64,000 nt of DNA from Verrucomicrobiia bacterium (GTDB taxonomy: Bacteria > Verrucomicrobiota > Verrucomicrobiia > Limisphaerales > UBA11358). Below, in pieces: positions 3,482 through 63,660 of this stretch. The DNA lies in NCBI GenBank assembly GCA_036509895.1, contig DATCEV010000030.1, positions 27,220 to 91,219 of the forward strand. The letters run 5' to 3'. How positions within the stretch are numbered: the stretch's first letter is position 1; each line of letters starts with the position of its first letter. The translations under genes and the position numbers were made by a program. The notes under the pieces were generated by a model. The model did not search any database. It was not told the DNA's origin and saw only the letters and a program-made list of their open reading frames with translations.

Positions 3482-3570
3482 ATTTATGATTGATGATTTA
3501 CAATCTATGATTGCTTCGCTGAACGGTTGCTGTTTTGAAAATCATAAATCATCAATCGTAAATCATAAAT
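3482..3570. repeat. ATGATT-unit inverted repeat downstream of plsC
   Basis: atttatgattgatgatttacaatctatgatt ... aatcataaatcatcaatcgtaaatcataaat. Confidence 0.7.
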
Positions 3571-4204: not shown

Positions 4205-4209
4205 AAAAC

Positions 4210-4292
4210 GAGAATGGAGGATTGAGGATGGAAGATGAAAAAGATTCGGCGCGATTTGTAATTGCTATTCTCCATCTTCAATCCTCCATCAT
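4210..4292. repeat. GGAGGATTGAGGATGGAAG-unit inverted repeat between cmk and plsC
   Basis: gagaatggaggattgaggatggaagatg ... attctccatcttcaatcctccatcatc. Confidence 0.7.
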
Positions 4293-4951
4293 CGCTTTTC
4301 CGCGAGGCGCGAACGGATTTCCTTCAACAGCAACCCGCTCGTCTGCTCGGAAGTCAGGTCAGAATTATTGATGACCTTTGCGCCCAGCGAAATCATCAGC
4401 GGCGCGACGGCGCGCTGGCTGTCGCGCTGATCGCGCGCGGCGAGATTTTCGTCCACGCCATCGGCGGCGCGACGGCGCGAGCGCTCTTCCAATTGCGCGT
4501 CGAGGTAAAACTTGAAATCCGTTTCGGGAAAAACATTCGTGCCGATGTCACGGCCTTCCATCACCAGGTTGCCGAATTGAATGCAATCGCGCTGCGTTTT
4601 CTTCATCCAATCGCGCACCTTCGGAATCGCGGCGACGTGCGACACCGCCGCGCTGACTTCCGAAGTGCGGATTTCTTTTTCGGGAAAATAACCGTCCACG
4701 AGCAAATGCACCGTGCGCAAATTATTTTTCTCCACACATTCCAATTTCGTTTTCCATTTGCGGCAAAGCGCGGCGACGGCTTTCGCGTCATCCACGTCAA
4801 TTTTCTGTTTCAAGCAATGCCACGCCAGCGTGCGATACATCGCGCCCGTGTCCACGTAAACGTAGCCGAGCGCCTTTGCCACGAGCTTGGCGTTCGTGCT
4901 TTTGCCGCTCGCACTCGTGCCGTCAATCGCAATGACAATTGGATTTTTCAA
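4289..4951 (-). CDS. cmk: cytidylate kinase
   Basis: IAIDGTSASGKST P-loop, YVDTGAMYR, 220 aa. Confidence 0.9.
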   Translation of the reverse strand: MKNPIVIAIDGTSASGKSTNAKLVAKALGYVYVDTGAMYRTLAWHCLKQKIDVDDAKAVAALCRKWKTKLECVEKNNLRTVHLLVDGYFPEKEIRTSEVSAAVSHVAAIPKVRDWMKKTQRDCIQFGNLVMEGRDIGTNVFPETDFKFYLDAQLEERSRRRAADGVDENLAARDQRDSQRAVAPLMISLGAKVINNSDLTSEQTSGLLLKEIRSRLAEKR

Positions 4952-5022: not shown

Positions 5023-6546
5023 TCAATCCGCAAATAATTCCTCGTGCGTTAATTTCTTTCCAGTTTTCGCGTCCAAAATTGTCGCGCCCAAACCTTTTGG
5101 TGGTGGCGCGGCCAACTTCTGGAAAAAATTCGGGAACGTCTTCTTCACGCAGGCGGGATTTTTAATTTTTATGCCGGGAACTTTCAACCCCAGAATCGCA
5201 AAACACATCGCCATGCGATGGTCGTGGTAGGTTTCGATCTCCGCGTCGTGCAACGGCGACGGCCAGACCGTCAGCGTGTCGCCTTCCTCGACCACTTTCG
5301 CGCCGCACTTGGTCAACTCCGTCCGCAACGCGACGACGCGCTCGGTTTCTTGGACGCGCAGGCGGCCAAGGTCGGTAAAATTATAGCGTTGGCCACATAG
5401 CACTGCGATAATAACAGCAGTCATGATGCTATCGCCAAGATCGTCCGATCGCGACAGCGATTTTACCCCATACTTTTCATCAATCTGTTTTTGCCACGTT
5501 TCTTGCTCGTTCTCAACGCGCTGTCGCCAATCTGGTCCATAAGCCTCTCGCACTTCCTCTATAACTCTTGGAATATCTTCAGGATTCCAAGAGTGAAATG
5601 CAGTCAAGAATCCAAGATGTTTTGGAAACTCCGCATCAATCTGCCAGTCTGTGGTAGGCCATTCTCGAACAGTAACAGTTGGGATGCTAATACCTTTGGT
5701 CACAGCGAAACCACCAGTTACGCCAAGAGATAGAGTTGAAGCGACGCCTGCCGCCCAAAAATAACTCCCGCTGCTCGCATCCGGTTCAATTTGAAATTCG
5801 CAGCCGTTTTTCGGAAACACTTCCATCAATTTCAAAGTCATCGCCACATACGGCGATTCCTCCGCGTTCTCGCCAACGACTTCTACCTTCCAATTCCCAA
5901 CCTTTGCGCAAAGCAACAGTGCCGACGCAAATTGCGAACTTTCTTCGATGCTCACCCGACATTTCTTCGTAGGAGACGACGTGAGGAGTCTCTGATCAAT
6001 TCCCACTTTTTTAATTTGAGTCTCGTCACCTCGACTCCTACCGCCAAAAATTTTCACCGGCAACTTGTCATTTCCATTTTCCGATTCGACACGATAACCC
6101 AATTCCTGCAACGCCTGAAACAACGCCGCCTGCGGACGCTCGTGCATCCGCGCCACGCCGTGCAGCCGATAGACTCCGCTGCCCAAACACAAAAACGGCG
6201 CGAGAAAACGCGCCGCCGTCCCCGCATTGCCAACGAACAAATCGAGCGGTTGCGACTCCGTGCCGCCACTCGGAATCAGACCGCCTTCGCCGATGACCAT
6301 GATGGTGCGGTTGCACGCCTCATCCGGGTCGGGCGCGACGCTCACCAAAAATCCAAGCTGCCGCAAACACGCGACCATGATCTGCGTGTCCTCGCTCCAC
6401 AACGCGCCCTTGAGCGTCACCTCGCCGTCCGCGAGCGCGGCCAAGATCAGCGCGCGGTTCGTGATGCTTTTCGAGCCGGGCACGGTGATCTCCGCGCGCA
6501 CGGGCTGCGCGAGCGGCACAATTTCAATTAAATCTGGAAGCGCCAT
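5023..6546 (-). CDS. aroA: 3-phosphoshikimate 1-carboxyvinyltransferase (EPSP synthase) with two extra segments
   Basis: PGSKSITNRALILAALA, EESSQFASALLL, DASSGSYFW, RLRVQETERVVAL, YHDHRMAMCF, CVKKTFPNFF. I place the start at MALPDLIEI (6546) because the 15 upstream codons of the track ORF (to 6591) are encoded by an intergenic repeat element. Confidence 0.9.
   Translation of the reverse strand: MALPDLIEIVPLAQPVRAEITVPGSKSITNRALILAALADGEVTLKGALWSEDTQIMVACLRQLGFLVSVAPDPDEACNRTIMVIGEGGLIPSGGTESQPLDLFVGNAGTAARFLAPFLCLGSGVYRLHGVARMHERPQAALFQALQELGYRVESENGNDKLPVKIFGGRSRGDETQIKKVGIDQRLLTSSPTKKCRVSIEESSQFASALLLCAKVGNWKVEVVGENAEESPYVAMTLKLMEVFPKNGCEFQIEPDASSGSYFWAAGVASTLSLGVTGGFAVTKGISIPTVTVREWPTTDWQIDAEFPKHLGFLTAFHSWNPEDIPRVIEEVREAYGPDWRQRVENEQETWQKQIDEKYGVKSLSRSDDLGDSIMTAVIIAVLCGQRYNFTDLGRLRVQETERVVALRTELTKCGAKVVEEGDTLTVWPSPLHDAEIETYHDHRMAMCFAILGLKVPGIKIKNPACVKKTFPNFFQKLAAPPPKGLGATILDAKTGKKLTHEELFAD
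5969..6041. repeat. full GTAGGAG palindromic element inside the aroA reading frame
   Basis: GTAGGAGACGACGTGAGGAGTCTC - 25 nt - GAGTCTCGTCACCTCGACTCCTAC. Same arms as 59354-59421 but in inverted order. Translated as ~GRSRGDETQIKKVGIDQRLLTSSPT. Confidence 0.85.
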
Positions 6547-6555
6547 TTTATTTAG

Positions 6556-6699
6556 CCACGGATGAAACACGGATTGAACACGGAAAAGCATCCGCAGATT
6601 TCGCGGATTAACGCAGATGAATTTGCAGCAAGCCCAATCTGCGAAAATTTGCCAAATCTGCGGACAAAAATCCGCGTTTCATCCGTGTTCAATCTGTGG
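6556..6699. repeat. compound nested inverted repeat (CACGGAT and CTGCGGA/CTGCGAA units) between tyrA and aroA
   Basis: ccacggatgaaacacggattgaacacgg ... ccgcgtttcatccgtgttcaatctgtgg, with an inner pair atccgcagatttcgcggatt ... aatctgcggacaaaaatccgcg. Confidence 0.8.
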
Positions 6700-6706
6700 C
6701 TAAAAT

Positions 6707-7591
6707 TCATTCGGATGAAATTGCGGTGGCTTTCGCACACCAGTTGTCACGACTTTGCTTGGCCGTCGTAAAATATTTTTCCACGGCTTGTTCGTCGCCG
6801 CTCTTGAGCGCGCTTTGAAATTTTTTCAGTTCCGCCACAAACGCATCCACCGAACGCGAAATATTTTTGCGATTGGCGAGTGCGATGTCGCGCCACATTT
6901 CCGGCGAGCCGGACGCGATGCGCGTCGTGTCGCGAAAACCATTGGCGCAAAGTGTCGCCTGCTGTTTTGGATTGGCCGGATTCAAAACCAGATTTGCCAG
7001 CGTCGCCGCGACGACGTGCGGCAGATGACTCGTGCGGCTGACGAGCAAATCATGCTGCGCGGCGTCCATTTTCAAAACGCGCGCGCCGAGCGCTTTCCAA
7101 AATCGTTCCAATTTTTTCAGCGCGGCGGAATTTGTTTTTTTGGTTGGCGTCAAAACGCACACCGCATTTTCAAAAAGATTTTCGCGCGCGGCGGCCACGC
7201 CCGTTTTTTCCGCGCCCGCCATCGGATGACTGCCGACAAAATGCGCGCCGCTTTTTTCCACGAGCGCTTCTAACTCGCGCACAACATCCACTTTCACGCT
7301 GCCCACGTCCGTGACAATTGCGCCGCGCTTCAACGCGGGCAAAAATTGTTTCGCGAGCGCGGCCATTTGCGCGAGCGGCGTGCAAAGAATGATCAAATCA
7401 GAATTGGAAACGGCGGCGAGCAAATCGGTCGTGGCAAAATCCGTCGCGCCAAATTTTTCGCAGTCGCGCAGATTTTTTTCGCGACGAACGAATCCGGCAA
7501 TTTCTCCCGCGACGCGATTTTTCCGCGCGGCCAAGCCAATGGAACCACCGAGCAAACCAACGCCGATGATGGTGATTTTGCGAAATTGCAC
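6707..7591 (-). CDS. tyrA: prephenate/arogenate dehydrogenase
   Basis: N-terminal Rossmann ITIIGVGLLGGSIG, GSHPMAG motif, 294 aa. Adjacent to aroA. Confidence 0.85.
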   Translation of the reverse strand: MQFRKITIIGVGLLGGSIGLAARKNRVAGEIAGFVRREKNLRDCEKFGATDFATTDLLAAVSNSDLIILCTPLAQMAALAKQFLPALKRGAIVTDVGSVKVDVVRELEALVEKSGAHFVGSHPMAGAEKTGVAAARENLFENAVCVLTPTKKTNSAALKKLERFWKALGARVLKMDAAQHDLLVSRTSHLPHVVAATLANLVLNPANPKQQATLCANGFRDTTRIASGSPEMWRDIALANRKNISRSVDAFVAELKKFQSALKSGDEQAVEKYFTTAKQSRDNWCAKATAISSE

Positions 7592-7649: not shown

Positions 7650-7790
7650 TGTAGAAATCTTTTTTCTCATTAACACCGCGTTTCAACGCGGTGGCTTCAA
7701 ACGCCGAAAAGAAAAACCGTTTAAACGGTTTTCTTCGCGTATCGCCTCAACACCTCGCTAAAGCAAGGTGTTAATGAAAAGTTTTCTACA
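7650..7790 (-). repeat. 141-bp three-hairpin element with terminal inverted repeats, copy A (reverse orientation)
   Basis: tgtagaaatc...gttttctaca. Contains hairpins caccgcgtttcaacgcggtg, aaaaccgtttaaacggtttt and aacacctcgctaaagcaaggtgtt. Itself flanked by a CACGAAAT-unit inverted repeat. Confidence 0.85.
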
Positions 7791-27208: not shown

Positions 27209-27350
27209 TGTAGAAAACTTATTATTAACACCTTGCTTTAGCGAGGTGTTAAACGCGCACGGGGGAGAAAAACCGTTGAAACGGTTTTTGTTTTCACCTC
27301 CGGCATTCACCGCGTTAAAACGCGGTGTTAATGAGAAAGATATTTCTACA
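27209..27350 (+). repeat. 142-bp three-hairpin element with terminal inverted repeats, copy B
   Basis: tgtagaaaac...tatttctaca. Hairpins at 27225-27252, 27268-27289 and 27308-27327. Track ORF 27152..27379(-) is a translation artefact of this element. Confidence 0.85.
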
Positions 27351-57953: not shown

Positions 57954-58012
57954 GACACGAATTACACGAATTTTCACAAATTCAATCCGTGTTAATTCGT
58001 GAAATTCGTGTC
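57954..58012. repeat. CACGAAT-unit inverted repeat
   Basis: gacacgaattacacgaattttcac ... gtgttaattcgtgaaattcgtgtc. Same unit family as 63548-63642 and 7625-7640/7805-7826. Confidence 0.7.
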
Positions 58013-58676: not shown

Positions 58677-59357
58677 ATGGCAAACAGCGTAACTGCTGCT
58701 CCCGTTTCCAACGCGCGGGATGAAGTGATTTTGCTGCATGGCCTGTGTCATACGAGCCGTTCGATGGCGAAAATTGAAGGTGCGCTGGCCGACGCCGGTT
58801 TCAAAACGCGGAACGTGGATTATCCTTCGCGCACTGCCTTGATTCAAAAACTTGCTGACGACGCGATTGGAAAAGCGTTGGCGGATTGCCATCAAAAAGG
58901 CGCCACAAAAATTCATTTTGTCACGCACTCGCTCGGCGGAATTTTGGTGCGCAGTTATCTCGCGCGACGCGCGATTCCAAATCTTGGCCGCGTGGTGATG
59001 CTCGCGCCGCCGAATCAAGGCAGCGAAGTCGTGGACTGGCTGGGTTCGCTCTGGTTCTTCAAAAAACTCAATGGTCCGGCGGGAAATGAATTGGGCACGG
59101 ACAAAAATTCTGTTCCGAACAAACTTGGCGCGGCGAATTTTCCGGTCGGCATCATCGCGGGCGACCGTTCCATCAATTGGATCAACAGCCTGTTATTTAT
59201 TTCGGGCCGCGACGATGGAAAAGTTTCCGTGGAGCGAACCAAACTCGCGGGCATGACCGATCACCTTGTGGTTCACGCCCCTCATCCGCTCATCGTGCGC
59301 CATCGCGAAGCCATCCGGCAGACGATTCAGTTTCTGCGAACAGGCAGTTTCTCGTAG
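58677..59357 (+). CDS. alpha/beta hydrolase (esterase/lipase-like)
   Basis: VILLHGL, nucleophile elbow VTHSLGG, ...DGKVSV..., HP; 226 aa. Confidence 0.75.
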   Translation: MANSVTAAPVSNARDEVILLHGLCHTSRSMAKIEGALADAGFKTRNVDYPSRTALIQKLADDAIGKALADCHQKGATKIHFVTHSLGGILVRSYLARRAIPNLGRVVMLAPPNQGSEVVDWLGSLWFFKKLNGPAGNELGTDKNSVPNKLGAANFPVGIIAGDRSINWINSLLFISGRDDGKVSVERTKLAGMTDHLVVHAPHPLIVRHREAIRQTIQFLRTGSFS

Positions 59358-59421
59358 GAGTCGAGGTAACGAGACTCATTATTTGCCGGTAAATTTAGAG
59401 TCTCCTTACGTCGTCTCCTAC
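59354..59421. repeat. full GTAGGAG palindromic element (two 24-nt arms)
   Basis: GTAGGAGTCGAGGTAACGAGACTC - 20 nt - GAGTCTCCTTACGTCGTCTCCTAC. Begins inside the stop codon of the hydrolase gene. Confidence 0.85.
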
Positions 59422-61098: not shown

Positions 61099-61122
61099 GT
61101 AGGAGCCGAGGTGACGAGGCTC
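61099..61122. repeat. solo arm of the GTAGGAG element
   Basis: GTAGGAGCCGAGGTGACGAGGCTC, 10 nt upstream of the pyrophosphatase ATG. Confidence 0.75.
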
Positions 61123-63541: not shown

Positions 63542-63547
63542 TTTTTT

Positions 63548-63642
63548 AACCACGAATGGACACGAATAAACACAAATCAAAAACGGAAATGGGAAACGTA
63601 TTGATTAAAATGATTCGTGTTCATTCGTGTTCATTCGTGGTT
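63548..63642. repeat. CACGAAT-unit inverted repeat between purE and the carbonic anhydrase gene
   Basis: aaccacgaatggacacgaataaacac ... gattcgtgttcattcgtgttcattcgtggtt. Confidence 0.8.
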
Positions 63643-63660
63643 TGAAATTGAATTAAACTC

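Follow-up and report, generated by a model that had tools for sequence, protein, structure and literature searches.

A GTAG-type REP doublet read in-frame within the aroA gene of a Verrucomicrobiia bacterium

The aroA locus and its palindromic element

The DNA considered here is a stretch of 64,000 nucleotides from the genome assembly of a soil-type Verrucomicrobiia bacterium (contig DATCEV010000030.1 of GCA_036509895.1; the whole stretch is hereafter called the window), and its main feature of interest is a 73-nt palindromic repeat element at positions 5969-6041 that lies inside aroA, the gene for 3-phosphoshikimate 1-carboxyvinyltransferase, also known as 5-enolpyruvylshikimate-3-phosphate (EPSP) synthase or EPSPS. 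The coding sequence occupies 5023..6546 on the minus strand and encodes 507 amino acids from MALPDL. The open reading frame (ORF) listed at 5023..6591 probably begins too far upstream, the real start being MALPDL at 6546 as in the homologues. The identity of the enzyme is evident from PF00275, which was found on all homologues, several of them named 3-phosphoshikimate 1-carboxyvinyltransferase, and from the catalytic motifs PGSKS, GNAGTAARF, SSQF, QETER, DHRMAM and KKTFP, which are conserved in our AroA alignment (A1).

A first-pass annotation had described the element as two 24-nt arms within the gene with related arms at 59354-59421 and 61099-61122, and both its description and these coordinates hold. 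The element consists of an inverted pair of 24-nt units, each beginning with GTAG, with a 25-nt spacer between them. Unit 1, at 5969..5992 on the plus strand (GTAGGAGACGACGTGAGGAGTCTC), is of the 'C..G' inner-pair type and is laid out as the GTAG tag followed by the imperfect palindrome GAGAC-GA-C-GTGA-G-GA-GTCTC. Unit 2, at 6018..6041 on the minus strand, is inverted and of the 'G..C' inner-pair type (the window reads GAGTCTCGTCACCTCGACTCCTAC, the minus strand GTAGGAGTCGAGGTGACGAGACTC). The A/T-rich spacer at 5993..6017 (plus strand TGATCAATTCCCACTTTTTTAATTT) codes for ..(Q)IKKVGID(Q)... The two arms differ at four positions, 8, 12, 17 and 21, and since 8/21 and 12/17 pair within an arm, each arm is a small palindrome of its own, that is, a repetitive extragenic palindromic (REP) unit with the consensus GTAG followed by GAGNC-GA-S-GTNA-S-GA-GNCTC. 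The region folds as a hairpin on both strands (-33.5 and -29.9 kcal/mol, z about -4), and the minimum free energy of -33.5 kcal/mol belongs to the mRNA sense strand. An inverted pair of REP units around a spacer has been termed a REPIN (Bertels & Rainey 2011, PMC3116915) or a head-to-head dimer (Di Nocera et al. 2013, PMC3733652). The whole element, 5969..6041, is such a doublet with its GTAG ends outward; in minus-strand orientation it covers AroA residues 169-193, counted from MALPDL.

Two further loci in the window carry the same repeat. A second REPIN of the family lies between convergent genes at 59354..59421, with one to two mismatches per arm and an unrelated 20-nt spacer, and a single REP unit lies at 61099..61122 on the plus strand (GTAGGAGCCGAGGTGACGAGGCTC; two mismatches), differing from the aroA unit by a compensatory change at positions 8/21 from T-A to C-G. 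The arms at both loci are likewise GTAG-initial and self-folding, and an ..ACGTC.. after the 61099-61122 unit may be a decayed second arm. In all, five REP units occur at three loci within 64 kb. The 12-nt core CGASGTNASGAG was found five times in the window against 0.04 expected, and shuffled window sequence gave 0 matches to the arms. The aroA copy is intragenic; the other two are extragenic or overlap a stop codon only. The stop codon of the plus-strand ORF at 58677..59357 is the TAG inside the GTAG of the second REPIN (59354-59357), so that the repeat supplies the stop of that gene, and the single unit lies in the leader of a minus-strand DHH/CBS-type ORF, some 10 nt before the likely start of that ORF (MSEIFVIGH..).

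Distribution and properties of the REP family

The exact arm pattern was used to scan one genome per species, which matched at least 120 stretches; the arm, doublet and intragenic counts in this section derive from the stretches listed by that scan. Nearly all of the arm-bearing stretches come from Verrucomicrobiota metagenome-assembled genomes (MAGs) labelled Pedosphaera, Limisphaerales, subdivision 3 and similar, and several of the MAGs among the matches listed have multiple contigs with the arm. None of the at least 120 arm-bearing loci listed is aroA and none is from the source genome. Across 159 arms, positions 8/21 covary (A-T 66, C-G 35, T-A 25), as do positions 12/17 (C-G 88, G-C 68, non-pairs 3). 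Because of the GTAG tag and this covarying intra-arm palindrome, the aroA element is a GTAG-type REP doublet, or REPIN, belonging to a family that is common in Verrucomicrobiota of the Pedosphaerales/Limisphaerales type. The matches listed contain 26 exact doublets with spacers of 10-106 nt, and 22 of these are heterodimers composed of one C-GTNA-G (C..G) unit and one G-GTNA-C (G..C) unit, a combination of two unit types that leaves regular mismatches in the long stem.

The composition of the unit leaves most reading frames open. Among 163 arms (L001-L120 and the window), the sole stop codon common to every arm is the TAG of GTAG; one reverse frame is stopped in 27 of the 163, and the remaining four frames are essentially stop-free, so that a REP unit can be read in four to five of the six frames. 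In ~83% of these same units both bases preceding GTAG are pyrimidines, and the five bases 3' of the 24-nt unit follow W-R-A-Y-Y, a flanking preference which indicates that the conserved unit is nearer 29-31 nt. A target-site duplication or common flank was sought at the aroA junction and only the family-wide pyrimidine preference 5' of GTAG was found; at the aroA copy it holds on a single side, the coding-strand 5' side having G. Of 135 elements among the matches listed, 48 count as intragenic by a crude test that requires 60 or more codons of open frame to either side. In-frame doublets occur in genes that Pfam identifies as an AcrB-type transporter, Hsp70, a GcvT-like protein, ArgJ, XseA (the exonuclease VII large subunit) and GlmS, and a uvrA-like ORF also bears a doublet of this family. 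The valS gene of another MAG (L104) contains the same two arms in a 73-nt unit whose spacer is identical to the aroA spacer at 21 of 25 positions (our own count from the alignment), whose flanks are unrelated, and which is read in the same frame as in aroA (SRSRGDETQTEKTEINQRLLTSSPT); this copy is evidence that the doublet behaves as one mobile unit. The same valS also has an RRDACPT segment, beside a masked stretch. Near aroA, 10 REP units were counted in 181 kb around genes with an intact REPIN and 2 in 188 kb around genes with a short turn at the site, a trend based on counts that are too small to rely on.

REPINs are non-autonomous elements that are thought to be mobilised on single-stranded DNA by the REP-associated tyrosine transposase (RAYT), an HUH/Y1 tyrosine transposase. 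Genes resembling RAYT are associated with units of this family in related MAGs. In L035 and in L211/L212 a RAYT-like ORF starts 13 nt after a REP of the family and has a complete REPIN farther out on its upstream side; L211/L212 also have an inverted REP 17 nt past the stop of the RAYT-like gene. In L202/L203 inverted units of a sister subfamily (GTAGCCACCGACGTGAGGAGGTGGC), which has the same core, border a RAYT-like homologue on either side. The ORFs of L035 and L211/L212 contain ..YYQGDAVVFWT.. and the HUH motif CLMPDH(I/L)HL, and their homologues have the tyrosine motif CFYIAANPVRA. In NCBIfam these proteins match NF047646, 'REP-associated tyrosine transposase', best (E 1e-9 to 1e-21); Pfam was not significant on the shortened L035 ORF alone (E 0.21), and full-length homologues were needed. 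RAYT-bearing contigs of this family are mostly short. The REP/RAYT cluster of L211/L212, and also that of L035, lies between lnt and lpxB, and about 60 nt from the 5' end of lpxB recur on the upstream side of the cluster.

Position and probable translation of the insert in AroA

The reading frame passes through the element without a stop, from ..KLPVKIFGG through (G)RSRGDETQIKKVGIDQRLLTSSPT to KKCRVSIEESSQFASALLL, as had been noted at first pass. An AlphaFold model of the protein (mean predicted local distance difference test score, pLDDT, 69.7) places strands at residues 164-168 and 194-199, followed by a helix beginning SSQF, with pLDDT below 50 for residues 171-191. In comparison with the solved plant-type EPSPS 8umj, query residues RSRGDETQIKKVGIDQRLLTSS fall in gaps and 8umj reads PVRVNGI..G..GLPGGKVKLSGSISSQY. 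From the gap and the strand positions, the insert extends the turn between the two strands, about 10 residues before the substrate-binding SSQ motif. An earlier placement of the insert in a surface loop is borne out to the extent that a low-pLDDT loop lies between strands; from the known EPSPS fold, the turn would point away from the active-site cleft. The REPIN segment is presumably transcribed and translated within aroA as a hydrophilic, probably disordered surface loop of ~24 residues that the enzyme tolerates.

Loop types among AroA orthologues

Loop types were counted among the 120 best AroA homologues and the site was followed across ~200 orthologues. A REPIN-type peptide occupies the site in about 74 of the 120, either as xSRGDETQ..QxLLTSSPT or as the GTAGCAG-type variant xSSRGNEAQ..QSLLTSAAT. 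The short turn GxGPRPGxC is found in all orthologues below ~73% identity and is scattered in the ingroup too. These counts speak against an insert of about 25 residues that close orthologues lack, since uniformly short turns begin only at that greater distance. The relatives that share the loop are not free of the repeat either, as their contigs carry REP units of this family at other places.

The DNA at the site is diverse. It includes REPINs with the unit variants GTAGGAG.., GTAGCAGCC.. and GTAGCCGCC.. and a fully paired variant GTAGCAGCCGACGTGAGTCGGCTC; an unrelated GTAG-REPIN, GTAGGGACGCGTTCCACCGCGTCCC.. (peptide RDAFHRVP..ERVPT), in L137, L139, L158 and L150; another GTAG-REPIN, GTAGTGGCACGGGCG.. 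(GTGVLPV..RRDARAT), in L186; runs of a 7-nt tandem repeat in L121, L124, L127, L128 and L140, to which L165 is added by its similar peptide only; and a non-palindromic loop of the same length (AGTAGELPQSQTEFIVRKSAPAMP) in L205 and relatives. Every one of the 28 enlarged loops for which the DNA was read is in-frame and stop-free, and these represent ten different lengths. In L207 (P0089) the peptide is GRGGETQTEFNQRRLTSSPV (RGGETQTE..QRRLTSSP), and its DNA matches the REPIN mostly at codon positions 1 and 2; the palindrome has been lost and third codon positions have drifted with the peptide kept, so this loop is likely a decayed REPIN. Length, position and a shared QTEF motif suggest the same origin for the other loops of the L205-type sub-clade. 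Heptamer repeats make up the spacer of some REPINs (P0031, L112), and P0041 combines one arm with a heptamer run; with such intermediates, it may be speculated that the heptamer-only loops also descend from REPINs.

Recombination confounds the neighbour-joining tree of AroA, which is star-like. A Fitch reconstruction requires 47 changes of loop type in comparison with 87 when labels are shuffled, which indicates phylogenetic signal in a tree on which independent insertions are not countable. At a different AroA loop, A1 columns 124-138, P0017 and P0026 have another repeat-derived peptide (GTGFQPVKGRQDACPT / GTGILPVNDRLEACPT).

Recombination within aroA

The genes neighbouring aroA in the window have ~78% DNA identity to both the L204 (P0026) and the L205 (P0027) lineages, and aroA itself is a mosaic of the two. 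Codons before a patch at approximately 5823..6093 (minus strand, codons ~152-242) match the L205 lineage, and the patch, which contains the REPIN, is 88-98% identical to the L204 lineage. Over alignment columns 40-160, identity is 87-98% to L205 and 62-87% to L204, with 79 of 88 informative sites L205-like; over columns 160-240/250, with the REPIN included, it is 40-82% to L205 and 88-98% to L204, and 76 of 85 sites are L204-like (Fisher p 4e-28 for the switch in parentage). The arms, the spacer, ~45 nt upstream and ~130 nt downstream are all 88-98% identical to the L204 aroA. The window, L204, L208 and L209 have almost the same REPIN, spacer included, and the near flanks in L208 and L209 are almost the same as well. 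The sharp switch of parent shows that the window aroA is recombinant and that its REPIN came inside a patch of ~270 bp exchanged by homologous recombination, probably into the source genome from another lineage.

The last ~80 codons of aroA (window 5023-5300) are 92-98% identical in DNA among the window, L204 and L205, and over seven alleles (window, L204, L205, L207-L210) their third-position identity is 0.76-0.86. This high identity suggests frequent exchange or strong constraint across the gene generally, and its cause could be recombination sweeps or constraint at the nucleotide level.

Origin and fate of the insert

We consider it likely that a REPIN is tolerated in-frame in aroA as an old insertion, which has been inherited, diversified and exchanged by recombination, and which reached the source genome on the ~270-bp patch. 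In this scheme a REPIN would have inserted at the AroA turn in an ancestor of the clade, would since have been passed on, diversified and moved between lineages through homologous recombination of aroA segments, and in some lineages would have eroded to an ordinary loop; the source genome would have obtained its copy with the patch from another lineage and not by new transposition. The first-pass proposal that a mobile hairpin inserted into the gene and was tolerated thus survives as regards a tolerated in-frame REPIN, and fails as regards a fresh insertion in this genome.

Several observations weigh against this account. A regular expression for the HUH/Y motifs and tblastn with E. coli RayT found no RAYT in the 64-kb window. 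The RAYT-like proteins flanked by these REPs are divergent and not certified equivalogs, with scores of 38-77 bits that lie below the NCBIfam curated cutoff of 80, and only one of them passes Pfam Y1_Tnp. The RAYT-like gene of L211/L212 has TAA at the position of the catalytic tyrosine (VCF*IVANPV, compared with CFYIAANPV), a stop that suggests that this copy is probably dead. The element measures 73 nt from GTAG to CTAC, which is no multiple of three, so the original insertion must have added or lost a few bases at a junction that is not reconstructable. That the segment is translated is something we infer from the open frame of the 28 enlarged loops and from the peptide kept in L207. Finally, synonymous-site identity in the REPIN columns is 0.80 and 0.63, within the range of 0.55-0.86 for the rest of aroA.

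Past the TAA, the frame of the L211/L212 RAYT-like gene is open again (L211 1772-2400, L212 1684-2300), and the same sequence is found on six contigs. Extra selection on the hairpin at the nucleotide level had been considered and was dropped, the arms being no more conserved than synonymous sites elsewhere in aroA.

A recent and private event, in which the REPIN transposed de novo into the aroA of the source genome and fell in-frame by luck, would fit arms that are near the family consensus, the two further copies in the window, and the lack of an intact REPIN in the nearest relatives by the AroA N-terminal half (the P0027 group). It is nevertheless improbable, given that the element and its flanks are 88-98% identical to the L204 aroA where identity elsewhere is ~78%, that L208 and L209 have an almost identical element and near flanks, that the parent switches sharply at informative sites around the patch, and that so many homologues have a REPIN-type peptide at the same site. 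Somewhat less improbable, though still unlikely, is that the hairpin is kept for a function of its own, for example to stabilise the mRNA, to pause translation between folding units, or as a DNA site of the gyrase/IHF type (IHF, integration host factor). Many lineages whose genomes have diverged to ~78% identity still have the palindrome intact, and the heterodimeric units leave regular mismatches in the stem, which have been suggested to guard RNAs against double-strand-specific RNases (PMC3733652). On the other side, synonymous identity in the REPIN columns is unexceptional for this gene, the palindrome has apparently disappeared from an entire sub-clade in which the loop persists, some ingroup orthologues have the short turn, no terminator-like site was found at the element, and inter-lineage recombination explains the high identity without selection.

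The first-pass annotation had also entertained removal of the segment at the RNA or protein level. Removal before the mature enzyme is formed, by RNA processing, by translational bypass of the hairpin or by protein splicing, could draw on the stability of the sense-strand hairpin and on the precedents of hairpin-dependent bypassing in phage T4 gene 60 and yeast mitochondria. We judge it very improbable. In-frame, stop-free loops of ten lengths would be unexpected if the segment were skipped, and the likely decayed version in L207 keeps the peptide without the hairpin. The features of bypass of the T4 gene 60 type were looked for, and there is no in-frame stop and there are no matched take-off and landing codons. 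Rfam gave no match in the whole window at the gathering threshold, and at permissive E-values over the element only chance-level microRNA and small nucleolar RNA matches (E 4 or more). A segment of 24 residues cannot be an intein: the size above 100, the initial Cys/Ser/Thr nucleophile, the terminal His-Asn and the following Cys/Ser/Thr (here K follows) are all absent. A loop ancestral to AroA, with its similarity to the repeats coincidental or the repeats derived from aroA, would account for its presence in many orthologues and is scarcely credible: outgroup orthologues and solved structures have the short turn, the repeat family has its own transposase association and occupies many unrelated genes and intergenic sites, and the arm matches to the other window copies have zero chance expectation. 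The chance that assembly joined a repeat into aroA is negligible, even though repeats do break and misjoin metagenome assemblies and RAYT-bearing contigs here are mostly short. An identical aroA with an identical element is present on an independent contig from another sample of the Joint Genome Institute (JGI; L206), which argues against the misassembly that had been raised as a concern; dozens of orthologues have the element at the same site, and the reading frame is intact on both sides.

An extension of the old, inherited REPIN insertion is that the EPSP synthase turn has served as a long-lived landing pad for GTAG-REPINs, which several unrelated families would have entered repeatedly, with heptamer slippage in spacers, swaps between species and erosion. 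The swaps, in this more tentative and on balance doubtful proposal, would proceed by short-patch homologous recombination between species that are ~78% identical. If it were correct, REPINs would regularly supply essential enzymes of this phylum with new loop sequence, would not be just intergenic passengers, and would perhaps be local promoters of recombination.

Other repeats in the window

A near-perfect hairpin of ~155 nt takes up the entire interval, 6547-6710, that separates the upstream prephenate-dehydrogenase-like gene from the start of aroA; it is built of the 7-8-nt motifs CACAGAT, CACGGAT, CGCGGAT and CGCAGAT (RNA minimum free energy -82.5 kcal/mol, z = -10.1). Further inverted repeats with arms made of runs of a ~7-nt motif (CACGAAT.., AGTCCAAA..) lie at 3482-3570, 4205-4298, 57954-58012 and 63543-63647, and an inverted pair with a ~7-nt motif is also present at 48441-48471/51355-51385. 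Runs of 7-nt tandem repeats in other lineages fill the aroA loop or the REPIN spacers. Two inverted-repeat matches join 7663-7790 and 27209-27338, 19.5 kb apart, one with 83% complementarity over 70 nt and one, containing the motif CACCTCGCTAAAGCAAGGTGTTAATGAAAA, with 95% over 42 nt; they appear to represent another repeat family.

Significance and comparison with known systems

REP sequences were named for their extragenic location and, to our knowledge, REPIN/RAYT biology has been worked out almost entirely in the intergenic space of Proteobacteria. The family described here is a Verrucomicrobiota REP family that is open in most frames and lies in-frame in many housekeeping genes. The record at the aroA site comprises an empty ancestral turn, intact REPINs of several families, expanded spacers and a likely decayed loop, and the loop offers a natural series for how mobile hairpins turn into protein sequence. 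Gene callers and curators of protein families may take from it the caution that peptides such as SRGDETQ, LLTSSPT and ERVPT in these phyla are repeat-derived. The sharp mosaic of aroA indicates that gene fragments with such elements travel between quite divergent lineages.

The occurrence of such repeats in-frame in genes is a phenomenon already reported in 2013, and the aroA case is a well-documented further example of it. Intragenic GTAG and CGTC REPs were catalogued at that time, with the verrucomicrobium Opitutus terrae and Rickettsia conorii having the largest numbers; dimers or groups that code for 20-30 residues made up over half, and different REPs occupied about the same recB site in two Xanthomonas species (PMC3733652). 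The supplementary list of intragenic REPs in that study (PMC3733652, Additional file 3) has neither aroA nor the REP-encoded peptides of this family, so that the present element is a further member of a kind already described.

In common with the GTAG REPINs of that and earlier work (PMC3116915, PMC3733652), the aroA element has GTAG at the outer end of an imperfect palindrome of ~24 nt, head-to-head hairpin units and, in its family, spacers of 10-106 nt and many dispersed copies; RAYT-like genes are flanked by units in related genomes, and the doublet with its spacer recurs at unrelated loci. An extragenic location is usual for REPs and is not defining, as PMC3733652 has many intragenic members; the aroA copy does not have it. 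Unlike those elements, the aroA copy is intragenic and in-frame, a large share of its family (the 48 of 135 among the matches listed) lies in long ORFs, and the associated RAYT-like proteins are divergent, with scores below the NCBIfam cutoff. In E. coli, bacterial interspersed mosaic elements (BIMEs) are built from REP types Y and Z in alternation. The aroA family resembles them in its inverted doublets of two unit types (22 of 26 doublets among the matches listed). BIMEs lie outside genes, unlike the aroA copy, and bind IHF and gyrase.

For Rickettsia, palindromic elements in-frame in genes were on record by 2000 (Ogata et al. 2000, cited in PMC3733652), and the CGTC-type intragenic repeats of R. 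conorii correspond to RPE-4 and RPE-6 of the Rickettsia palindromic elements (RPEs) (PMC3733652). As far as they are described there (PMC3733652), these are likewise palindromic repeats in-frame in many genes, essential ones included, and form translated, tolerated extra segments. Their host is an alphaproteobacterial intracellular parasite, their sequences are presumably unrelated to the aroA REPIN, and they differ from it in host phylum and from its 73-bp length. Only the in-frame mode of insertion is common to both. RPE-1 is longer, about 100-150 bp, and we know of no RAYT link established for these elements.

The intragenic REPs of Opitutus terrae (PMC3733652) share with the present case a verrucomicrobial host and the occurrence of REP dimers coding for 20-30 residues in housekeeping genes (uvrA, helicases, ligase). 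They differ in their REP families and in host order, and aroA is not listed among them. To that set the present analysis adds a single site followed over ~200 orthologues, with several REP families, a likely decay series and exchange by recombination.

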